Shown here piece by piece: positions 3,829 to 32,167 of a DNA stretch of 53,826 bases. The position numbers and the translations under genes are program-made. The DNA is from a virus. Its lineage: Duplodnaviria; Caudoviricetes. Under the pieces are notes generated by a model. The model saw only the letters and a program-made list of their open reading frames with translations, made no database searches and was not told the DNA's origin. Every line of letters starts with the position of its first letter. Position 1 is the first letter of the stretch. Where the stretch lies: positions 1 through 53,826 of IMG/VR virus record IMGVR_UViG_3300044801_000056, one strand, 5' to 3'.

Positions 3829-4148
3829 TGGAAGCCAGACATACACTGCCGAATCGGCGAGAGAGCTATATTATTGATTTTGAGCACAGGAATATGCCAT
3901 TTACTGTTGGGTATAGCTTTTTTAAGGAAAGCGGGAATCTGGCAGAAATTTTTGTTCAACCTCGATTGCCATCTAGTGATTTGCATGACGAATTGGGAAG
4001 CGCATCAACGATTCTTAGCATTTCTCTCCAATATGATGTCCCACTTTCGACGATCCGATCTGGCCTACCAAAACATGCAAATAATCGCCCTTGTTGCATA
4101 ATTGGAAAAGCTCTTACCGCTATTGCATCTGCCCAAAATATAGAATGA
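3825..4148 (+). CDS. Stand-alone TSCPD-like protein (NrdJ class II RNR C-terminal-related)
   Basis: RHTLPNRR...GNLAEIF...SISLQYDVPL resembles the NrdJ C-terminal region. Confidence 0.7.
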   Translation: MMEARHTLPNRRESYIIDFEHRNMPFTVGYSFFKESGNLAEIFVQPRLPSSDLHDELGSASTILSISLQYDVPLSTIRSGLPKHANNRPCCIIGKALTAIASAQNIE

Positions 4149-4718
4149 ATTTCACTTGAAGCTATTCAGCTTCCTCCCAAGACTTAGCCCCGGCCGGTGA
4201 AATCGGCACGTCGCGCATGGGCGCGCCGAATCGTAGTCTGGAACCTGGACGCGGCCGTTGATGTGGACGATATCAGCCATCGGCGTTCTCCGATAGAGAG
4301 GCAAGCGCGGAGCGGGCAATGGTTATTCTCTGGTTGAACATCATCGGCTCGGAGCCATCGTCCCCATTTTGTTCCATCCAATTTGCTAGGTCGAGGACAA
4401 TGGCCCGCAAGCCAGGGAGGCAAGCGAGCCTGATTTCACGAATTAGACGCCGCAGCTCAAATCTCTTTGACCGGGGATGGCTGTTTCGTCTCACACGAGC
4501 CCGCAAACACGGGCAGGAAGGTAGGTGGCACATGACAACATAACTTGATCCATTGGCTAGGGTCGGCGGCTTCGTTCACAGCGAAGTTGCCGACTTCAGT
4601 TTCATGGGCCGGGGCTGGTAGCCGAGAGCCGGATTTCCACCTGTGCGCTCCGGAGTCCGATCCCCCGTCGGTCCACCTTAGTTTTTGGTATACGAAAGCG
4701 TTGATTCCGTCAAGGGAA

Positions 4719-10624: not shown

Positions 10625-11607
10625 TGCCTTGCTCCTGTCAAATCGGAGGACGTTGCCGCGCTCGCCGCTTCAAGATCGGCTAGCCGTTTCATATCGGCCA
10701 ATGCTTCGGCATTCGTTTCGTAAAAACGAACCGGGCTAACGGGCAGATAGGGGGAACTCTCACGATAGATAAGTTGTGCGGCAAGACATGTGTTGTGGTA
10801 GCGCTCCAAAGCATATCCGGCCTCGCCAGCCAAATGAACAACCCATCCAGCACGGCGATGGGCCGTGCCGCAGGTATGCCATGCGTTCATTTCAAGAGCT
10901 TGAGGCTTAGATGCAGCTTCCAAAACCTTGGCGTGGATATTCTCGATTTTAGGAATTGGCGGAAGAGTAAGCGGGTCACTTCTATCTTTTTTGCCCGAGC
11001 AATCCGAGCAACGCGAGCAATCCGAGCAATCCGAGCAATCCGAGCAATCCGAGCAATCCGAGCAATCCGAGCAACGCGAGCAATCCGAGCAACGCGAGCA
11101 ATCCCAGCAATCCCAGCAACGCGAGCAATCCGAGCAACGCGAGCAATCCGAGCAACGCAAGCAATCCGAGCAATCCCAGCAATCCCAGCAACGCGAGCAA
11201 TGCGAGCAATCCGAGCAATCCGAGCAACGCAAGCAATCCGAGCAATCCCAGCAATCCCAGCAATCCGAGCAATCCGAGCAATCCGAGCAATCCCAGCAAT
11301 CCCAGCAACGCAAGCAATGCGAGCAATCCGAGCAATCCCAGCAATGCGAGCAATCCGAGCAATCCCAGCAATCCGAGCAATGCGAGCAATCCGAGCAATC
11401 CCAGCAATCCGAGCAATCCGAGCAATCCGAGCAATCCGAGCAACGCAAGCAATGCGAGCAATCCGAGCAATCCCAGCAATCCGAGCAATTTCGACAGTCG
11501 ATCAGCGTTTCGAGGGATGCTCGTGCTTTCGCCTCGCTACCCCAAAACGCGATTGTCGCGCGGTTGCCATTAGAATCGGAAACTTCGGTAATTTCTGCTT
11601 GATCCAT
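10621..11607 (-). CDS. Cys-x-x repeat protein with conserved C-terminal domain
   Basis: 56 CxX triplets flanked by unique domains (WHTCGTAHRRAGWVVHLAG); AGGAG RBS. Confidence 0.85.
   Translation of the reverse strand: MDQAEITEVSDSNGNRATIAFWGSEAKARASLETLIDCRNCSDCWDCSDCSHCLRCSDCSDCSDCSDCWDCSDCSHCSDCWDCSDCSHCWDCSDCSHCLRCWDCWDCSDCSDCSDCWDCWDCSDCLRCSDCSDCSHCSRCWDCWDCSDCLRCSDCSRCSDCSRCWDCWDCSRCSDCSRCSDCSDCSDCSDCSDCSDCSRCSDCSGKKDRSDPLTLPPIPKIENIHAKVLEAASKPQALEMNAWHTCGTAHRRAGWVVHLAGEAGYALERYHNTCLAAQLIYRESSPYLPVSPVRFYETNAEALADMKRLADLEAASAATSSDLTGARQ
10993..11496 (-). repeat. 9-nt tandem repeat array (56 units)
   Basis: Internal units TGCTCGGAT, TGCTGGGAT, TGCTCGCAT, TGCTTGCGT, TGCTCGCGT. Confidence 0.97.
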
Positions 11608-11700
11608 CTCATCTCTCCTAAAGTGGATAATTAATCCGACGTTCTGCCATTCCGTCTGTGATGATCATCGTCTTGTCCCGTCTTTTCGTTTCCATGGCCC

Positions 11701-11730
11701 ACAGAAACCACGTTCTGTAATTTCCGTCAA
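11701..11730 (-). promoter_or_regulatory. Leftward early promoter with overlapping palindromic operator
   Basis: Minus-strand TTGACG (-35); palindrome ACAGAA-N6-TTCTGT at 11701-11718. Confidence 0.55.
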
Positions 11731-11765
11731 CCCACATTTCGTAAAAAATAATTTGATGGAGAGGA

Positions 11766-11796
11766 TTGACATTTATAACTCCATGTCACTTTATAT
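11766..11796 (+). promoter_or_regulatory. Rightward promoter with palindromic operator, probably giving a leaderless mRNA
   Basis: TTGACA at 11766; TGACAT-N10-ATGTCA at 11767-11788; AT-rich -10 region; ATG at 11802. Confidence 0.6.
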
Positions 11797-11801
11797 GAGA
11801 T

Positions 11802-12011
11802 ATGAAGAAACCAGTCACGATCAAAGACCTTGAAGATACCGCGATACGATTAGGCGCCAAGCCTAAGACTGTTTGGATGTGGCGCTATCGCGGCGTTCCG
11901 GCCTCATGGCAACTTCGTCTTGTCAAGGAAGGAAAGGTGCCCCCATCTTTCCTCGACCAATTCACCGGTCCCTATCCTATTCGGCAATCGCGTGCCAAGG
12001 GGCGCACATGA
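11802..12011 (+). CDS. Cro-like HTH regulator
   Basis: Short HTH (TAIRLGAKPKTVWMWRYRGVP..WQ); first gene after the divergent promoters. Confidence 0.7.
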   Translation: MKKPVTIKDLEDTAIRLGAKPKTVWMWRYRGVPASWQLRLVKEGKVPPSFLDQFTGPYPIRQSRAKGRT

Positions 12012-12196
12012 AATTTCCATCGTTGCCTCATCCCCGCCCAGAGCCGAAAGTGATTTGCGTGTTTTGCGGCGGCGACCGAACTAACCGGTCTTTCCTCGTG
12101 CAGATGACCCCCACAATGTGGATTTGCTATTCTTGTCTTTCCACAGCGAATGATGTGGCACGCGATCATTTCACAATCCCAGGAGCGATTCGATGA
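12008..12196 (+). CDS. ClpX C4-type zinc-finger protein
   Basis: CVFCG...FLV......ICYSC matches the zf-C4_ClpX spacing; ATGA coupling. Confidence 0.65.
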   Translation: MKFPSLPHPRPEPKVICVFCGGDRTNRSFLVQMTPTMWICYSCLSTANDVARDHFTIPGAIR

Positions 12197-12291
12197 TCAT
12201 AGCATTCTTCCGGCCCGTCTTCTTTTTCATCGTGTGCTGGCTGCGGGCCGGGCTTTTCTTTTGCGAACTCAAACTAAGCATGAATTAAACC

Positions 12292-12933
12292 ATGGTACCT
12301 GAAATGATTATGACGGCAAAGATCAATCTCCGCGTTCTTCGCTCAGTATCGAAATTCTCCAGCAAGAAAGAGACTCGATATTATCTGAACGGCGTCAAAT
12401 TGGAAATAGAGCCGCGCGCTGTGACTTATATCGCTACGGATGAGTATACGCTCTTTGTCCGTCGCGATCCCAAACCAGATGATGAACCCGATAACGATAT
12501 GACCGGGGAATTCATTATTCCGACGTCTTCTTTCTCGTCATTCAAGCTGAAAAAAAGTGATTTAGGCCATGCTGATATTTTCGGAAATATGGCCGAGATG
12601 CAGATCAAGCATGAAGATATCGGCATCGTATTTCGTCCGATCGACAAAGTATTCCCCAACTGGCGCGCAGTGTTTCCTCGCTTGCCTCTGAGCGGGATTA
12701 TCGGTCAATTCAATGGGAACTACATTTCCCGCTTCACGAAGGCATCGGAAGAATTATCCATGGGTCACCCAACTATCCACCATAACGGCGTCGGTGTATC
12801 GATAATTCGGTTCGGTCAGGAAGATACATTTGGATGCATTATGCCGTTTCGTGTGGAAGATAGATCATCCAAATCGCTCCCCGAGTGGATATATAGCGAT
12901 GATCCTGAATCAGTCGAGAAAGATGCAGAGTGA
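12292..12933 (+). CDS. DNA polymerase III beta-clamp (DnaN)-like protein, partial-length
   Basis: ETRYYLNGV...IATD...FPNWRAV...IMP. Confidence 0.75.
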   Translation: MVPEMIMTAKINLRVLRSVSKFSSKKETRYYLNGVKLEIEPRAVTYIATDEYTLFVRRDPKPDDEPDNDMTGEFIIPTSSFSSFKLKKSDLGHADIFGNMAEMQIKHEDIGIVFRPIDKVFPNWRAVFPRLPLSGIIGQFNGNYISRFTKASEELSMGHPTIHHNGVGVSIIRFGQEDTFGCIMPFRVEDRSSKSLPEWIYSDDPESVEKDAE

Positions 12934-13298
12934 TCATCCGCCGCAAACACCCTGAGAATGATCTACAGCAAGCCATCTACGATTATCTCCTCGCCGTCCT
13001 TCCGCCGCAAGATTGGCTCGTATATGCGAACCCAAACGCATCACGGCGCACGGCGGGCGAGAGGGCGTCGAATGGCGTGCCAGGATTGACGAAAGGGATT
13101 CCAGATTTATCAATCCTGCAACACGGGGGCAAAATGTTCTACCTCGAAGTTAAGGCCGCGAAAGGTGTCCTTAGCGATCCGCAAGAGACCATCCGTAATC
13201 GGCTAGATCGGATGCTAGTCCCGTTTGCGGTGGTACGGTCGATTGAAGACGTTCGGGTCGCATTAAGACAATGGGGAATCAAAACGAGAGAAATCTGA
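12930..13298 (+). CDS. VRR-NUC (PD-(D/E)xK) nuclease
   Basis: ENDLQ...GIPDL...YLEVK...LSDPQ...VVRS. Confidence 0.85.
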   Translation: MIIRRKHPENDLQQAIYDYLLAVLPPQDWLVYANPNASRRTAGERASNGVPGLTKGIPDLSILQHGGKMFYLEVKAAKGVLSDPQETIRNRLDRMLVPFAVVRSIEDVRVALRQWGIKTREI

Positions 13299-13332
13299 TA
13301 ACCGGATATTCTCAATTCAAACAGGAGCGAAC

Positions 13333-13563
13333 ATGAGCAACGATATCGTATATGAGGATGCGCCTTTTGAAAAAATCAATAAAAGGCCATCGAACTCAGA
13401 GATTATCCGAAATATGCCCGTTGGAAAATCTTTTCTTTTCCTTCATGGCAACCAATACCAATCAAGCTTGGCATCGATGAGCTACCTTCACGGAAGAGAC
13501 AATGGGAAAAAATTCCGGGTGCGCTTGGAAGGCGCGGATGTCCGCGTTTTCCGTATCTCGTGA
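13333..13563 (+). CDS. Small conserved phage protein, possibly DNA binding
   Basis: AGGAG RBS; MPVGKSF...KFRVR...VRVFRI. Confidence 0.6.
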   Translation: MSNDIVYEDAPFEKINKRPSNSEIIRNMPVGKSFLFLHGNQYQSSLASMSYLHGRDNGKKFRVRLEGADVRVFRIS

Positions 13564-13569
13564 CTCGAT

Positions 13570-14403
13570 TTGCATGGTGAAGACATGATCACTCCATGTG
13601 ACTTCGACTGCATGCGACCGGTAAAGCGTTGGACACCACATCGGAAATATTTCATCGTCCAAGGCGTTCGCGATGGTTCTTTGAACCTTGCTGCCGTCAT
13701 GCGAGTGCATGGCATCAGCTATGAAGAATACGCTATCTGGGCGCGGTCCATCGCTTCGCCGCCTATCGGTATCTCGATCAAGGGTTCGGAAATGACTACG
13801 TTGTTGCCAGGCCTTTTACAAAAGCATTTTTCTTGCGTGCTCGCGGACCCTCCATGGCGCTTCGCGTCAAACAGCGTGGCCAAGCCGGGCCGCAACGCCA
13901 TGCGCCATTACGATTGCATGTCGCTGGACGATATTGCGGCCCTGCCAGTCGCGGAGTGCGTTGCCAACGACGCGGTTCTCTTTATGTGGATTACAGGGCC
14001 GTTCCTCGCGATCGCGGCACATATCCCGATCATGAGAGCCTGGGGTTTTAAACCGAGCGGCATGGGGTTCGTTTGGGTCAAACTTAATCGCCGCGCGCCT
14101 GAGCTTTTCACGGCCCGGCAGGATCTCGCGATGGGCGGTGGCTTCACGACCCGGAAGAATGCGGAATTTTGCTTGATTGGAAAGCGCGGCCGCAGCTTGC
14201 GCCTTGATGCCGGAATCCATGAAATCATCATCGCGCCGCGCCGCGAGCACAGCCGCAAGCCGATCGAAACGCATCACCGGATCGAACGATATTGCGCCGG
14301 TCCACGCCTTGAGCTATTCGCGCGTGAAAGCCGCGACGGTTGGACGACATGGGGCAATCAAGCCGGAAAATTTGACCAGCCAGTTTTGGACGTTGCCGAA
14401 TGA
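13570..14403 (+). CDS. SciP/DUF1153-like domain fused to MT-A70-family N6-adenine methyltransferase
   Basis: N-term KRWTPHRK...VRDGSL...ISYEEYAIW; then ADPPW, LFMW, FVWVK, TRKNAEFCLIG, REHSRKP, LELFAR; internal in-frame ATG at 13792. Confidence 0.85.
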   Translation: MHGEDMITPCDFDCMRPVKRWTPHRKYFIVQGVRDGSLNLAAVMRVHGISYEEYAIWARSIASPPIGISIKGSEMTTLLPGLLQKHFSCVLADPPWRFASNSVAKPGRNAMRHYDCMSLDDIAALPVAECVANDAVLFMWITGPFLAIAAHIPIMRAWGFKPSGMGFVWVKLNRRAPELFTARQDLAMGGGFTTRKNAEFCLIGKRGRSLRLDAGIHEIIIAPRREHSRKPIETHHRIERYCAGPRLELFARESRDGWTTWGNQAGKFDQPVLDVAE

Positions 14404-14583
14404 AGGAGCTTCCCGCTATCATGATCGCGGCTCTTAAGAGAGCACAGAAACGAGCGCTGGACCGGCGGGACGCTTACGCCGCAAGGCTTCTCGGTGAAGC
14501 GATTGATGATGTGCGAAAAGCCGTCTTGGAATCTTGGAAACGGAAGCGGCGTTATTAGTACCATAAATCGAGATAGGAAACCG

Positions 14584-15105
14584 ATGTCTTTTTGGACGAA
14601 GGAACGGATATCCGAACTGCGAAGAATGATCGATGAAGGGTATTCAAGCGGGAAAGTCAAGGACTTGATTGGCGCGACAACGCGAAATGTCGTGATTGGT
14701 AAAGCTTACAGGCTAGGACTACGGTTTCAGGGGAGAAAGATGGAAACAGCGCAAGACGAATCGCTACCAGCCAAACGCAACCACGGGAAAAAACCTCCGC
14801 TCCCGGCGCTCTTAGTCGAGGTTTCGTCTCTTAAAACAGCACTTACCATGCTGTTGGACGAAGATCCGGTTGTCGAGCCACCCCCGATCGTCCAAGACGA
14901 GCCTCAAGCGTTAAAGACGCTGATGGAGCTAGGCTATATGGATTGCCGGTGGCCCGTCGATGTCGAGGGCGGCTTTCTGTTCTGCGGGCAGGTCAAGGAT
15001 CGAGGATCGTATTGTCTCGCCCATGCGAAACACGCTTTTACCGGGAAGATGTTCAACCGGGAGCCCGGATATTCGTGGAAGCCCGCAATTTCAAGGAAAG
15101 TCTGA
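14584..15105 (+). CDS. gcrA: GcrA cell-cycle regulator homologue
   Basis: WTKERISELRR...TRNVVIGKAYRLGL and LMEL...CRWPV...FCG...YC..H; AGGA RBS before MSFW. Confidence 0.9.
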   Translation: MSFWTKERISELRRMIDEGYSSGKVKDLIGATTRNVVIGKAYRLGLRFQGRKMETAQDESLPAKRNHGKKPPLPALLVEVSSLKTALTMLLDEDPVVEPPPIVQDEPQALKTLMELGYMDCRWPVDVEGGFLFCGQVKDRGSYCLAHAKHAFTGKMFNREPGYSWKPAISRKV

Positions 15106-15106
15106 A

Positions 15107-15292
15107 ATGAAAACGCACTGCATCGCGGGACACTCCTATTCCGATAATCCCCCACGATCGCAGATAGGGAAGAACGGAAAATCTTATTGGAAATGTCGAG
15201 TTTGCGCCCAACTCCGCGAGACAAGGCGCCGGGACGAACTGCGCGAGTTGCGGGCTGCGGCTAATCCGCCACTTGATCTGGATCAAAGGTAG
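15107..15292 (+). CDS. Small Zn-binding protein (HNH-associated type)
   Basis: KTHCIAGHSY...CRVC. Confidence 0.55.
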   Translation: MKTHCIAGHSYSDNPPRSQIGKNGKSYWKCRVCAQLRETRRRDELRELRAAANPPLDLDQR

Positions 15293-15779
15293 GGAACAAA
15301 CCGTGTTTCAAGAGACTAAAACCACAACCCGAGACTTCCGAGCCGAACACCGCGAGCGTCAGCGGCGCTATTTCCCGCAATGTTTCCCTCAACCTGTCGT
15401 CATCCACGATCCCATGCCAGCCGCTCCGGTTTCTCCTAGGACACCTAAATTCTTCGCGCCTCGCAAAACTCGTTACATTGCGCCCTTCCCTGATGATACC
15501 CTCCGCCGATTCCGTGTGATTCTGCAATCGTGCGCTGAGACGTTCGAGAGCGATCCGGCCTTGACTCTATCGAAAAGAAAAGATCCTGACGTGCTGCTAA
15601 CGCGTCAGGTGGTAATGTTCCTCATGTTGGAAAACAAGATCATCGGTCGGCGCAGCGGGGGGCGATTGTTCGGCGTTGATCCCGCGACAATATACAGTTC
15701 ACACAGGAAAATCAAACGCTTAATGAATGTCAATCCGGCGTTCGCGGAATTGATCGACGGGATCAAAATAGGAGATTGA
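15273..15779 (+). CDS. DnaA C-terminal (domain IV) HTH-like protein
   Basis: SKRK...RQVVMFL...GRLFGVDPATIYSSHRKI resembles DnaA domain IV; start uncertain. Confidence 0.65.
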   Translation: MIWIKGREQTVFQETKTTTRDFRAEHRERQRRYFPQCFPQPVVIHDPMPAAPVSPRTPKFFAPRKTRYIAPFPDDTLRRFRVILQSCAETFESDPALTLSKRKDPDVLLTRQVVMFLMLENKIIGRRSGGRLFGVDPATIYSSHRKIKRLMNVNPAFAELIDGIKIGD

Positions 15780-15842
15780 CCTCGCCGCGAAGATAGCTAG
15801 GATTGAGGCGGATGTGCTAGCGGCTTTGGCGGAGGTGGGGCG

Positions 15843-16589
15843 ATGACAGACCTACCAATTATTTTTAGCGCGCCCATGGTGAAGGCTCTCTTAGCCGGGC
15901 AGAAAACACAGACACGACGGATTTTGAACCCGGTCAAAGATGTGATCCTAAAAGATTTCAAACAGCAAGAAGAACACCAAACTGGGGTAGGCACATGGTA
16001 TCGGCTTCCCATCGAAAAAATGCAGAAATCTCGCTATGCCATTGGCGACCGGCTCTACGTCCGAGAGTCCTTATGCGCAAAAAATATGGACTTTGGAGGA
16101 ATTCTAGGACTTACAGAGCCTCTAACTGCGGTTGATATGACGCGAGGAGATGTAGTCGCCTCCTATTCTTCCGATGGAGAATTTGTTGTCAACGAAGATG
16201 GTTTCAATCTTGCTTGGCTTTGGGATCGCACAAAAATTCCGTCAATCCACATACCGCGCACTTTCTCCCGTCTCACCCTTGTAGTGACTGACGTCCGCGT
16301 TCAACGGTTGCATGACATCAGTGAAGAAGATGCGATTGCGGAGGGAGTTGACTGGTCAGAGGAATGCTGCAAATCCCCGTCACGGGAAGGTTTTCCACCA
16401 GGATGCTGTTGCGGTCAACCAGACGCCATTAGCCCGAAGGATAATTTCCAAAATCTATGGCGTTCGATCCATGGTCCTGGCGCATGGGATGAAAATCCTT
16501 GGGTGACAGCGATCTCGTTTGAAGTGCATCACTGCAACATCGATGCCGTTGAGAGCCTACCAGTCCGCGCTATGGGGGAAATAGCATGA
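15843..16589 (+). CDS. ASCH/PUA-like phage protein
   Basis: PIIFSAPMVKALLAGQKTQTRR, PSIHIPR, RVQRLHDISEEDAIAEG, NPWV. Confidence 0.8.
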   Translation: MTDLPIIFSAPMVKALLAGQKTQTRRILNPVKDVILKDFKQQEEHQTGVGTWYRLPIEKMQKSRYAIGDRLYVRESLCAKNMDFGGILGLTEPLTAVDMTRGDVVASYSSDGEFVVNEDGFNLAWLWDRTKIPSIHIPRTFSRLTLVVTDVRVQRLHDISEEDAIAEGVDWSEECCKSPSREGFPPGCCCGQPDAISPKDNFQNLWRSIHGPGAWDENPWVTAISFEVHHCNIDAVESLPVRAMGEIA

Positions 16590-16730: not shown

Positions 16731-18194
16731 ATGGCCGCCGAAATTCATGAGATTACATCGGCCAAAAAGTCGAAGGGATTAATCCCTCCTATTCCGGTTA
16801 GCGTCGAGATCGAGCAAGCGCTTCTCGGATGCCTTCTTTTAAATAATGAAATCATCGGAATGATCACAAGTTCCGTATCGGTTGATGATTTCTCCGAAGA
16901 AATTCACCGGCGTATTTTTTCTGTGTCGTGCGACCTTTTAAGTGCTGGGCAATCGGCGCGACCCGGCACATTGATTCCCTATTTAGGAGATCAAGCTCTT
17001 TCCGATGATATGACGCTTTCCCGGTATTTGGCGAGGCTTTGCGCCGAATCCATGCCAGTTTCTCTTGCGTCCGGTTATGCAACCTCGATCCGAAACCTCG
17101 CGAACAAGCGCCGATTGATCGACGAAGCCGCTTTACTGGACGAAAGAGCGCGCTACGGCGACGTTCTCGACGATCCGGCTACGATAGCGGCGGAATCAAT
17201 CTTGCGTATTCAGGGCATCGCCGCATCGTCTGGAACCGATACCACGCGCCATGTGGGGGATTACTCCGGCGAGATCATGACATTGATCGAAGGTGTTCGA
17301 TCTGGCGAGATTGAACATAAGATCGTCACAACCGGATATCGCGAGATTGATGAGGCGGCGAACGGATATGAACCTGAGACGCTTTGGGTTGTGGCGGGGA
17401 GACCTGGGATGGGGAAGAGCGCCTATCTCAATGCGTCCGCTTATCGGTGCGCGCGCGGCGGGACCGGCATCCTTGAATTTCCTCTAGAAATTGGCCCACA
17501 ACAGGCCGTTGCGCGTCATCTCGCGGACATTTGCTATCGATCTAATCACTCCGTCGCCTTCCGGGATATTGGCATGCGTGCGAAAAGCATGAGCGATGAT
17601 GATTTGCAGGCCGTCAGAGAAGCCCATAGGAGGCTTAAAGAGCTTCCGATAGAGATTGACCGCCGCTCCCGCGCGACCGTGGCTCAGATTGGCGCTAAGA
17701 TCGCCCAAACGAAGAGATCAATGGCGGCACGCGGGATAACGTTAGGCGTCGTGTTTATTGACCATCTCGATTTCATCCATGCGAGCGACCGCTACAGCGG
17801 CAACCGGACGCAAGAGATTGGAGAAATCCTTATATCTCTGAAAGATATAGCGCGTTGGCAACGGCTTTGCATCGTGCTTTTTAGCCAGCTCAATCGAGAT
17901 GTCGAAAAGCGTCCTAGTGGCGATCGTAGACCGGGCCTTTCGGACCTCAGAAATTCTGGAGATTTAGAGCAAGCCGCTGATGTTGTTATGTTTCTTTATC
18001 GAGAGGAATACTATCTCTCTCGATCTCCTGAATTTCTCCGTCATGACCCGGAGGCCGTCGATAAATGTGCGGAATCCGTTGGAAAACTTGAAGCCATCAT
18101 CAGTAAGGCGCGCGCTGGCATGATCGGTACGAGCCATCTGTTTTGCAACCTCGCATCGTCATCTATTTCATCTGTTGACCGGAGATTTTCATGA
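16731..18194 (+). CDS. dnaB: DnaB-like replicative helicase
   Basis: EQALLG N-domain, Walker A GRPGMGKS, IDHL, SQLNR, LSDLRNSGDLEQAAD, KAR. Confidence 0.93.
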   Translation: MAAEIHEITSAKKSKGLIPPIPVSVEIEQALLGCLLLNNEIIGMITSSVSVDDFSEEIHRRIFSVSCDLLSAGQSARPGTLIPYLGDQALSDDMTLSRYLARLCAESMPVSLASGYATSIRNLANKRRLIDEAALLDERARYGDVLDDPATIAAESILRIQGIAASSGTDTTRHVGDYSGEIMTLIEGVRSGEIEHKIVTTGYREIDEAANGYEPETLWVVAGRPGMGKSAYLNASAYRCARGGTGILEFPLEIGPQQAVARHLADICYRSNHSVAFRDIGMRAKSMSDDDLQAVREAHRRLKELPIEIDRRSRATVAQIGAKIAQTKRSMAARGITLGVVFIDHLDFIHASDRYSGNRTQEIGEILISLKDIARWQRLCIVLFSQLNRDVEKRPSGDRRPGLSDLRNSGDLEQAADVVMFLYREEYYLSRSPEFLRHDPEAVDKCAESVGKLEAIISKARAGMIGTSHLFCNLASSSISSVDRRFS

Positions 18195-29539: not shown

Positions 29540-32167
29540 TTGGAAGTGAATGTAAATGATCTTTCGAAATATGAGGCTTATATCAATGGTCTCTCCCTGA
29601 AAGAAAAGGCAGAACTCGATAAGCTGATCGCTAAGGAACTTGCAGCCAAATGGCTTCCGGATCCGCGCAATCAGCCACAAGTGACGGCTTATCATTCGCA
29701 AGCCGACATGATGCTATACGGCGGGGCAGCGGGTAGTGGGAAGACTTCTCTTCTAGTCGGACTCGCGGTCACGGCTCATCATCGGACGGTCATCTTCCGG
29801 TCCAAGGCTGTCGATCTCAGAGGCGTCGAGGAATATCTCCTAGAGCTTATGGGACGCGACGGTTGGAATGGACAAGATAAAATCCTTCGCCGTCCCGAAT
29901 GTGTGATTGAACTCGGTCATCTTGAAAAGCCAGGGTCTGAACGGTCTTGGCAAGGTAGACCTCATGATTTGATCTGTGTGGGGCGCGGGACGCCGGTATT
30001 AATGGCTGATGGTTCTTACAAACCAGTAGAACAATTAGCCGTCGGAGAGATGGTCCAAACTTTGGAAGGTTCTCGCGCAATTCAGAAAACGTTTCCAGCT
30101 CAGTTTAAAAAAGCCGTCATTATCTCTACGGCTACACAATCTCAGGTTCAGTCCGTTGAACATGAGCTTTTGACAGACGCGGGTTGGGTATCCCACGGTA
30201 ACATTTTTTCACTTCGCCCTTTTTGGTTTTTCGAACCCATTGAACTCCCATTTTTGCGCAAAGTCGTAAAATGGTGCGTTCGGCCATATGAGCGGCTGCT
30301 TTACAGTCTCTCAGGCTTAAGTTTTCATCTGCGGCATATAACCGAACGATTGCTAATTCCTTTTCAGTGGGGGCATGCATCCGAACCGGAGATTTGCGCT
30401 TACGCGGGGCAAGAATATCTGGGAAATGATTTCGAAGACTTTGATGGTTCAGACCAAGAAATTCCGCAGCCTGCTTTATCGATCGTCCAACAAGAGCTTC
30501 TTCAAGCTGTTCAGCAGTTGGCCGACGTGGGGCATAATATTCTTCGTTTCGTTTTGCCATGTGATGGCGGCGGTGTTCTGAAAAAGTTAAAACTTCAAGG
30601 TTGGACAGATCGTTATTTGTCCGGCATTCATCGATATGGTGCACGCATTCTCGCTTTTTTGGGTCTTCACCTTGAACAAGCGGGCGTCCAGCTATATCTT
30701 CACCAATCATGCGATGTTGAGCAACCCAGCCCCATCGATTCTGAAGATGATGTCCAGGACAAAACTCGTAAACATAACCTCCATATAATGTCGTATGTCC
30801 ACCCTTATACGAAGGAAATTCGTCAAATATCGGAACGATCGATTCTTTATCCATCTTCATGTTCAGTCCATCAAATTGGAGTGGCAGAGTTATATGATTT
30901 GCAGGTTGAAGGAGCAAATCACTATATAACGAAGGGCGGATTTATCAATAAGAATTGCTTCGACGAGGGCGCCCAACTTAGTCGTGCAAAGGTGCAATTT
31001 GTTTTGGGTTGGTTGCGCTCAGTTGATCCAAATCAACGGCGTCGAGTGGTGATTGCATCGAACCCGCCAACAGGCGGTGAAGGTGAATGGCTGATTGAGT
31101 GGTTCGCGCCTTGGCTCGATCCGCAGTTTCCTAATCCCGCGAAATCAGGGGAATTGCGCTGGGCTGCAACGGCCCCTGATCTTGAAGGAACAACGATCTG
31201 GTTAAAGGATGCAAGCCCGATAATTTTCACTGAAGGGCGCGAATACCGGATTGCGAACGAAGAAGATGCCAAAGGAGGCAATCTTCACGTAATTCAGCCT
31301 ATGACCAGGACATTCATTCCGGGCCGGTTGGAAGACAATCCCTATCTCAGGGATACAGGTTATCGGGCCCAGCTTCAGGCTCTCCCGGAGCCGCTCCGAT
31401 CGCAAATGCTTCACGGCAACTTTCTTGCCGGGCGCCAGGATCATGAATGGCAAGTGATCCCGAGTGCATGGGTTAAGGAAGCTCAAGCGCGTTGGACAGA
31501 GCGGCCGCCGCAAGACGCGATTATGTCAGCTATCGGCGTCGATGTCGCGCAGGGCGGGGCTGATAATTCAGTTCTAGCGCCCCGCCATGGCCCTTGGTAT
31601 GCGCCATTGATTGTTGAGCCTGGCGTTAAAACGCCGCGCCCCAGCGACGTTGCGGCGCTCGTGGTGAGATATCGCCGGAACGCAGCTGCGGTTGTCGTGG
31701 ACGTTGGCGGTGGTTATGGTGGCGGTGTCAAGGAACGCCTTGAAGAGAATGAAATCACGGTCCGGCCTTTCAATGGGGCGGGCGAATCTCACGCTAGGAC
31801 TGCTGATAAGCAGCTTCCCTTTGCAAACAAGCGCGCGGAAGCGCATTGGCGGTTTCGGGAGGCATTGGACCCGGATCAAGAAAACGGGTCTAGCATCGCG
31901 CTTCCAAATGATCCTCAATTGTTTTCTGACTTGACTTCAATCCGCTGGAAGTTGACAAGCCAGGGGATTCAAATCGAGAGCAAGGAAGATTTGAAAAAGG
32001 CCGAGCGCTTAGGCCGGTCACCCGATAAGGGTGATGCGGTTATCATGGCATGGTCTGAAGGTGAAAAAGCGATTGTCGCCAATATCCGGCGGAAATCGAA
32101 AAGCAATTCTCTGCCGACAATGCCAACGATCGGCGTCGGATCTGGAACCGGATGGATGGGTCATTAG
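29540..32167 (+). CDS. terL: Terminase large subunit containing an intein
   Basis: Walker A YGGAAGSGKT; Walker B DLI|CFDE split by the intein; ASNP; nuclease GVDVA...SPDKGDA. Confidence 0.95.
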   Translation: MEVNVNDLSKYEAYINGLSLKEKAELDKLIAKELAAKWLPDPRNQPQVTAYHSQADMMLYGGAAGSGKTSLLVGLAVTAHHRTVIFRSKAVDLRGVEEYLLELMGRDGWNGQDKILRRPECVIELGHLEKPGSERSWQGRPHDLICVGRGTPVLMADGSYKPVEQLAVGEMVQTLEGSRAIQKTFPAQFKKAVIISTATQSQVQSVEHELLTDAGWVSHGNIFSLRPFWFFEPIELPFLRKVVKWCVRPYERLLYSLSGLSFHLRHITERLLIPFQWGHASEPEICAYAGQEYLGNDFEDFDGSDQEIPQPALSIVQQELLQAVQQLADVGHNILRFVLPCDGGGVLKKLKLQGWTDRYLSGIHRYGARILAFLGLHLEQAGVQLYLHQSCDVEQPSPIDSEDDVQDKTRKHNLHIMSYVHPYTKEIRQISERSILYPSSCSVHQIGVAELYDLQVEGANHYITKGGFINKNCFDEGAQLSRAKVQFVLGWLRSVDPNQRRRVVIASNPPTGGEGEWLIEWFAPWLDPQFPNPAKSGELRWAATAPDLEGTTIWLKDASPIIFTEGREYRIANEEDAKGGNLHVIQPMTRTFIPGRLEDNPYLRDTGYRAQLQALPEPLRSQMLHGNFLAGRQDHEWQVIPSAWVKEAQARWTERPPQDAIMSAIGVDVAQGGADNSVLAPRHGPWYAPLIVEPGVKTPRPSDVAALVVRYRRNAAAVVVDVGGGYGGGVKERLEENEITVRPFNGAGESHARTADKQLPFANKRAEAHWRFREALDPDQENGSSIALPNDPQLFSDLTSIRWKLTSQGIQIESKEDLKKAERLGRSPDKGDAVIMAWSEGEKAIVANIRRKSKSNSLPTMPTIGVGSGTGWMGH
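30132..30860 (-). CDS. HNH homing endonuclease encoded antisense within the intein
   Basis: GYVYEFCPGH...WVAQHR...GRPL...VHHIDECRTNNDLSNLEVL...EHRRHH plus C-terminal HTH-like segments; ATG at 30860 or 30854. Confidence 0.85.
   Translation of the reverse strand: MKMDKESIVPIFDEFPSYKGGHTTLYGGYVYEFCPGHHLQNRWGWVAQHRMIGEDIAGRPLVQGEDPKKRECVHHIDECRTNNDLSNLEVLTFSEHRRHHMAKRNEEYYAPRRPTAEQLEEALVGRSIKQAAEFLGLNHQSLRNHFPDILAPRKRKSPVRMHAPTEKELAIVRLYAADENLSLRDCKAAAHMAERTILRLCAKMGVQWVRKTKKGEVKKCYRGIPNPRLSKAHVQRTEPEIV
30889..30917 (-). promoter_or_regulatory. Putative sigma70 promoter for the antisense HNH gene
   Basis: Minus strand TTGCTC-N17-TATAAC, about 30 nt upstream of ATG 30860. Confidence 0.55.

Follow-up and report, generated by a model that had tools for sequence, protein, structure and literature searches.

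SciP is presented in 10.1101/739516 as a conserved helix-turn-helix (HTH) protein that inhibits CtrA-activated late S-phase promoters. The phage side of this circuitry is described in PMC9437464, which reports GcrA homologues in phiCbK-like phages and CcrM analogues in some Sinorhizobium phages; the same study scanned phages for SciP-binding sites, and the parts of it on which we draw mention no phage-encoded SciP. The MT-A70 methyltransferases, in turn, have been placed among circularly permuted enzymes related to M.MboIIA and M.MunI, and the same source (PMC4738411) describes phage methyltransferases that have ParB-type HTH domains fused or linked to them. In the literature that we searched, we found nothing on a phage-encoded SciP or on a fusion between DUF1153, the Pfam family of SciP, and an MT-A70 methyltransferase, and the term DUF1153 itself was not found in these papers.

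Here we analyze a phage gene in which these two families are joined in a single reading frame. We consider it quite likely that the chimera is real in sequence and that it was made by a recent small deletion joining a coupled pair of genes, one for a DUF1153 protein and the other for an MT-A70 methyltransferase. The gene is located in a window of 53,826 nucleotides (the whole stretch of DNA analyzed), an IMG/VR record of 53.8 kb that represents a complete-looking (91%) P22-like phage contig with a G+C content of 52.6%. The window encodes P22-type portal, scaffold and coat proteins along with a leftward Erf/YqaJ recombination module. An 875-aa ORF (29540-32167) immediately preceding the P22-type portal gene contains a weak match to the Hom_end-associated Hint family (aa 146-207, E 6.9e-5, below the cut-off), which may be an intein inside the large terminase. 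The fused gene itself belongs to a tightly packed rightward operon in which the order is beta-clamp-like gene, VRR-NUC gene, orphan ORF, fusion, 52-aa ORF, GcrA-family gene, DnaA-domain-IV-like gene, DnaB gene and DUF1376 gene. The neighbors of the fused gene are the following:

12292-12933, plus strand: beta-clamp-like gene of the rightward operon
12930-13298, plus strand: VRR-NUC gene of the rightward operon
13333..13563, plus strand: 76-aa ORF upstream of the fusion, not assigned to a family in Pfam or PHROGs
14400..14558, plus strand: 52-aa ORF without an identified family; its start codon shares an ATGA with the stop of the methyltransferase gene
14584..15105, plus strand: GcrA-family gene, 173 aa from ATG 14584 (PF07750, 87.7 bits, cut-off 26.9)
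15273-15779, plus strand: DnaA-domain-IV-like gene (Bac_DnaA_C, E 6e-5, below the cut-off; TIGR00362 positions 349-433)
16731-18194, plus strand: DnaB gene, followed in the operon by the DUF1376 gene

The upstream ORF (13333-13563) has no relative besides itself in a collection of 5.8 billion proteins. In the ORF at 15273-15779, the resemblance to DnaA domain IV lies in the C-terminal part, and the beta-clamp-like, DnaA-domain-IV-like and DnaB genes look like a replication module assembled from host-like parts. Scans for promoters and terminators across 11500-16000 yielded hits at chance level (5 found against 3.5 expected, and 4 against 5.2, respectively). Four-base overlaps between start and stop codons (ATGA or GTGA) occur at 12930/12933, 14400/14403 and 18191/18194, and would have occurred ancestrally at 13792/13795 as well; the recurrence of these overlaps points to translational coupling of the early-operon genes.

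The fused ORF consists of an N-terminal domain of the SciP family and a methyltransferase, as follows:

13585..14403, plus strand: fused ORF, 272 aa from ATG 13585, a start placed by homology to the N-terminus of the closest relative of the N-terminal domain (P0122)
13621..13755, plus strand: DUF1153 (SciP-family) three-helix HTH core (Pfam, profile positions 27-71 of 87)
13780..13794, plus strand: Shine-Dalgarno-like motif AAGGG (13780-13784) and ATG 13792, the presumed ancestral methyltransferase start, forming ATGA with the old stop
13792..14403, plus strand: MT-A70 family N6-adenine methyltransferase, 203 aa if started at 13792 (PF05063, phrog_359)

The open frame extends back to 13564; the longest ORF call (13570-14403, plus strand) starts at TTG 13570 and yields 277 aa, and the JGI gene call for the window's own protein (P0002, 263 aa) starts at ATG 13612. 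ATG 13585 rather than TTG 13570 is likely to be the start of the fused frame because P0122 (78 aa, 69% identity) begins with MSEIPCDFDRM, compared to MITPCDFDCM in the window, and the conservation of PCDFD.MRPVKRW between the two proteins backs this choice. The first-pass annotation, made from the sequence of the window alone, had proposed a SciP/DUF1153-like N-terminus that continues, with no intervening stop, into a complete DPPW-type MT-A70 domain, with an internal ATG at 13792, and the sequence and the family searches bear out each of these points.

In the complete protein, Pfam detects DUF1153 (PF06627) at aa 18-62 (31.7 bits, E 1.7e-7, gathering cut-off 23.5); a scan restricted to aa 1-77 gives 35.0 bits, and a scan of the DNA 33.8 bits. 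The domain sequence also matches both solved DUF1153 structures, 2oa4 (E 1.2e-4) and 2jrt (E 0.013). The structural model of the domain, predicted from an alignment of 25 family members (A2), contains three helices (aa 18-30, 35-42 and 46-57, numbered from ATG 13585), with a mean pLDDT of 79 that exceeds 90 over about aa 11-50; the top structural match of this model is 2jrt (Foldseek probability 1.00, TM by query 0.64, E only 0.08), with generic HTH domains ranking after it. A mixed alignment of both domain families (A1), in which the small proteins were misaligned, was set aside. The weak match to HTH_Tnp_1 (E 0.038) shows the N-terminal domain to be a putative HTH of the transposase type. 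The C-terminal segment of DUF1153 (the G-x-x-G-L-R-V-T region, profile positions 72-87) is absent from the in-frame product, the match to the family HMM in the fused frame ending at WARSIA, position 58 of 86. The small protein's own function may be impaired after losing this conserved segment.

An exhaustive phmmer search with the N-terminal domain against 1.84 billion representatives returned 24 matches at E<=0.001, among which 23 are stand-alone proteins of 63-146 aa and one is a 659-aa repeat protein without an aligned stretch. The domain has no match at E<=0.01 among 50,697 GenBank phage records and none at E<=0.001 in PHROGs; P0122 has no match in the metagenome contigs and, among the viral contigs, matches only one distant locus. 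This locus, on a viral contig of 75.8 kb (L016), encodes a stand-alone 71-aa DUF1153 protein (3986-4201, 38% identity to P0122) with no methyltransferase gene adjoining. Because such a protein is encoded there, putative SciP-family genes are present in a few other uncultured phages.

The other half of the protein is a complete methyltransferase. The MT-A70 match (PF05063, aa 87-264) covers profile positions 1-172 of 172 (103.7 bits, E 1.4e-29, cut-off 23.9; 104.9 bits on the DNA) and includes D93-P-P-W96, encoded at 13846-13857, an instance of the DPPW motif that we take to be the catalytic motif of MT-A70 methyltransferases. In PHROGs, the protein matches phrog_359, DNA methyltransferase (E 2.4e-69), and hundreds of stand-alone enzymes from phages and prophages are closely related to its methyltransferase half. 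The best relative of this half is a 202-aa protein (P0003, 77% identity), and among named genomes, those of Bradyrhizobium, Xanthobacteraceae and other Rhizobiales contain the closest relatives (58-67% identity), which suggests a host in the Rhizobiales group. The close relatives of the methyltransferase start within one codon of the internal ATG. A 203-aa methyltransferase-only product from ATG 13792 is plausible given that this codon is apparently the ancestral start, with AAGGG seven bases upstream. We infer that the methyltransferase half is an active orphan N6-adenine DNA methyltransferase that would protect the phage DNA from restriction and/or write marks for the adjacent GcrA-like factor, whereas the truncated HTH might be a passive N-terminal extension or might bias the enzyme towards whatever the HTH binds.

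The first-pass annotation had suggested a search for the same architecture in other genomes; no second DUF1153-MT-A70 fusion came up in any search that we ran. The methyltransferase has 7764 relatives at E<=0.001, and among the best 120 of these, which were examined, PF06627 is found only on the window's own protein. Most of the 120 are 186-221 aa long, and in ten longer ones, the extensions are either C-terminal, or N-terminal and unrelated. Conversely, when aa 1-80 were searched against proteins of 152-485 aa, the window's own protein was the sole match (7 candidates scored). A family HMM built without the window's sequence detected a DUF1153 gene near none of 99 related methyltransferase loci at E<=0.1, in flanks of 2-3 kb where the contig allowed; these loci (13 viral, 17 genomic and 69 metagenomic) are not de-duplicated, at least L004 and L037 being the same contig. 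The homologue searches were word-limited or performed at the level of clusters, such that rare fused relatives could escape. The fusion appears to be a singleton that arose in a recent one-off event. Two candidate relatives were rejected. Vibrio phage sequences matching aa 32-271 are 213-aa methyltransferases, the extra alignment extending into the end of a portal gene, and a locus matching aa 18-272 (L024) has an unrelated N-terminus with no match to the DUF1153 HMM.

The origin of the fusion can be traced in the segment between the two domains, which contains three overlapping features:

13745..13752, plus strand: putative frameshifting-deletion junction GGTCCATC, translating to R-S-I (fused frame) or G-P-S (+1 frame)
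13745..13795, plus strand: apparent +1-frame remnant of the C-terminal tail of the small gene, GPSLRRLSVSRSRVRK, with stop TGA 13793-13795 (tblastn with P0122)
13747..13791, plus strand: 15-codon linker SIASPPIGISIKGSE, apparently the old tail in the wrong frame, predicted to be disordered (pLDDT <50 at aa 63-73)

When P0122 is compared with positions 13300-14600 by tblastn, aa 5-65 align in the fused frame with 70% identity, and aa 63-75 (GPSQRRLSVSRAR) align with the +1 frame at 13745-13783 (GPSLRRLSVSRSR), where 11 of the 13 residues are identical (E 3e-4 in this 1301-base search); the evidence on the out-of-frame tail comes from the comparison with this one close relative. The +1 frame continues as ...SRVRK to the TGA at 13793-13795, which overlaps the methyltransferase ATG 13792 as ATGA; the family HMM gives the +1 piece 0.6 bits, which is not significant. 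The spacing between the invariant W and the glycine of the C-terminal motif is 7 bases here, compared to 8 residues or more in each of the 24 other family members in the alignment. With the 5' portion of the small gene reading in frame 0 and its tail in frame +1, the missing piece would consist of 3n+2 bases, most simply 17 bases, from the family-typical spacing, or 23 bases, from the spacing in P0122. The sequence GGTCCATC suits both frames, R-S-I resembling the family's R-A-I after the W and G-P-S resembling the tail, and may be what is left of an 8-base direct repeat after a deletion between its two copies.

The intact tail could also be read as functional, if the small gene were still expressed whole through programmed ribosomal frameshifting to +1 near 13745, such that a DUF1153 protein with its tail would be made alongside the fusion protein. 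The +1 frame does preserve the tail intact up to the ATGA junction, but the frameshifted product would still lack at least 5 residues between the W and GPS that are present in 24/24 other aligned family members, and a young deletion explains the intact tail equally well. We regard frameshifting as extremely improbable.

The two readings of the gene offered by the first-pass annotation thus part ways: the one in which two genes were recently fused by a deletion agrees with the tail and stop preserved out of frame (13745-13795), with the ATGA overlap and with the separate proteins that are the nearest relatives of the two halves; the other, a CtrA-targeted methyltransferase, finds no support in the comparisons described below. 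Under the deletion scenario, the ancestor would have carried a gene of about 80 codons for a DUF1153 HTH protein and, next to it, a stand-alone MT-A70 gene whose ATG overlapped the TGA of the first gene in an ATGA, as in translational coupling; the pair would have been part of the early/replication operon of a P22-like phage. The deletion, of 3n+2 bases (17 or 23, possibly between two copies of GGTCCATC), would then have removed the stretch between helix 3 and the conserved C-terminal motif of the small gene and thereby shifted the 5' part of that gene into the frame of the methyltransferase. Ribosomes starting at ATG 13585 would read on into the methyltransferase because the 15 codons of the old tail contain no stop in the new frame, yielding a 272-aa HTH-linker-methyltransferase protein, and with the old start intact (AAGGG, 7 bases, ATG 13792), the 203-aa methyltransferase would probably be made too. 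The event would be very young because the old tail and stop are still recognizable out of frame. The best matches of the two halves, P0122 and P0003, each a singleton whose contig measures 1807 bp, are probably encoded by adjacent genes on one contig; an unrelated JGI contig (L086) is also 1807 bp long, and equal lengths do arise by chance.

A different concern is that the deletion was introduced by assembly or sequencing, or is confined to a minority allele, and that the real phage has two separate genes. The window is a metagenome-derived viral contig, found in a single public run, a peat metagenome that is probably its own source sample. A second assembly of this run, the Logan contig (6506 bp, depth 13.4), is identical over 13300-14600, with no differences, which argues against an assembler error; these are not independent data, given that both assemblies probably derive from the same reads, and both may share an error; moreover, contigs hide minority alleles. 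Short-read errors do not typically take the form of a loss of 17-23 bases, and we find an artefact quite improbable.

The adaptive alternative to an accident is that the fusion is under selection, with the SciP-family HTH tethering the methyltransferase to the host CtrA or to specific DNA sites and thus aiming methylation at particular promoters. Several observations are compatible with this possibility: the HTH core is intact and confidently folded in the predicted model, HTH-MT-A70 architectures recur elsewhere (a lead), the GcrA-like and DnaA-domain-IV-like neighbors suggest an interest in the host cell cycle, and SciP inhibits CtrA-activated promoters (10.1101/739516). On the other side of the ledger are the single example, the tail and stop whose recognizable out-of-frame state indicates a very young event, and the distance from SciP. 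With the SciP equivalog (NCBIfam NF051866, cut-off 100 bits), the N-terminal domain reaches 34 bits and, because of this shortfall, is by sequence a distant paralogue of SciP, not an orthologue. Among its stand-alone relatives, P0122 scores 35.2 bits, P0131 81 bits and P0127 80 bits, and P0134, with 103 bits, passes. Together with this score, the conserved C-terminal segment missing in frame and the lack of a CtrA box (TTAA-N7-TTAA) anywhere in the window speak against a CtrA-targeted methyltransferase. A complex prediction for the N-terminal domain (alignment A2) with CtrA of Caulobacter (Swiss-Prot CTRA_CAUVC) gave a score of 0.00 and a mark of 0.32, which counts neither for nor against binding. 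All told, selection for targeted methylation seems unlikely to us.

An even bolder version would have the phage deploy its SciP-family protein, together with the GcrA-like and DnaA-domain-IV-like genes, against the CtrA-centered cell-cycle transcription of the host, with the fresh fusion tethering the m6A methyltransferase to CtrA-bound or HTH-bound promoters. This is a very doubtful proposition; if true, it would mean that a newborn targeted epigenetic writer has been caught as it originates. Returning to the deletion scenario, we note that an accidentally made protein could nevertheless be functional and selected, considering that an N-terminal HTH followed by MT-A70 is common with HTH_58 (a lead only).

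The GcrA-like neighbor deserves separate consideration. The protein encoded at 14584-15105 scores 72.9 bits against the GcrA equivalog cut-off of 280 (NCBIfam NF050816) and, judged by its sequence, is not a GcrA orthologue. GcrA-like ORFs flank 14 of the 99 related methyltransferase loci (phmmer, E<=1e-3), namely, L004/L037 (same contig), L007, L010, L020, L044, L050, L052-L057 and L071. By analogy with CcrM/GcrA, this linkage suggests a recurrent phage-borne pair of an MT-A70 methyltransferase and a GcrA-like protein. A CcrM-type methyltransferase was considered for the fused gene and rejected, the fused protein having no match to a CcrM-family Pfam domain (presumably N6_N4_Mtase, which we take to be the sequence family of CcrM).

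Taken together, the protein represents a familiar type, the orphan MT-A70 methyltransferase of phages, in a variant that is new and probably accidental. We would annotate it as a DNA methyltransferase of the MT-A70 family to which a truncated DUF1153 domain is fused, rather than as SciP or as a CtrA-targeted enzyme. The main value of the locus is the clean record of how the fusion would have formed, along with the phage-borne SciP-family and GcrA-family genes found close together. It offers a dated example of the origin of a multidomain enzyme, apparently through one short deletion in a translationally coupled gene pair. For the phages of soil Alphaproteobacteria, two points are noteworthy, namely, the presence of a SciP-family gene in a phage and the repeated linkage between MT-A70 methyltransferase and GcrA-like genes.

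Compared with the known systems, the N-terminal domain belongs to the same Pfam family as SciP of Caulobacter and other Alphaproteobacteria, shares the three-helix HTH fold of 2oa4 and 2jrt, and retains the invariant RW..RK, E and W positions of DUF1153; unlike SciP, it is phage-encoded, falls below the equivalog cut-off and, in the in-frame product, lacks the C-terminal GLRVT-like segment. The arrangement of the locus is reminiscent of the CcrM/GcrA module of Alphaproteobacteria in that a GcrA-family gene follows an adenine methyltransferase gene at a distance of 180 bases. Unlike CcrM, however, the enzyme here is of the MT-A70 type, the Pfam matches being limited to MT-A70, DUF1153 and the weak HTH_Tnp_1, and the GcrA-like protein is far below the orthologue cut-off.

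The closest similarity is to the stand-alone MT-A70 enzymes of phages and prophages (PF05063, phrog_359), with which the methyltransferase half has the full profile and the DPPW motif in common. The identity to the MT-A70 proteins of about 200 aa from soil Alphaproteobacteria and their phages is 60-77%, and their start codon, the presumed ancestral one, is kept here, but the fused protein differs from the stand-alone enzymes by a 69-aa in-frame N-terminal extension that consists of the truncated DUF1153 HTH and the wrong-frame linker. In overall layout, the nearest named clusters by language-model features (score 0.91; a lead only) are the methyltransferases that combine HTH_58 (PF19575) with MT-A70, which are about 283 aa long and similarly consist of an N-terminal HTH followed by MT-A70. 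The HTH family is a different one, with no match to PF19575 in the fused protein at E<=1 (Pfam), and the HTH_58 fusions form clusters of 223, 71 and 51 members (a lead only), in contrast to the singleton described here. The layout produced by the putative deletion is, accordingly, an established architecture already present in other MT-A70 lineages, and given the HTH_58-MT-A70 clusters of 51-223 members (again, a lead only), it is not implausible as the layout of a working enzyme.
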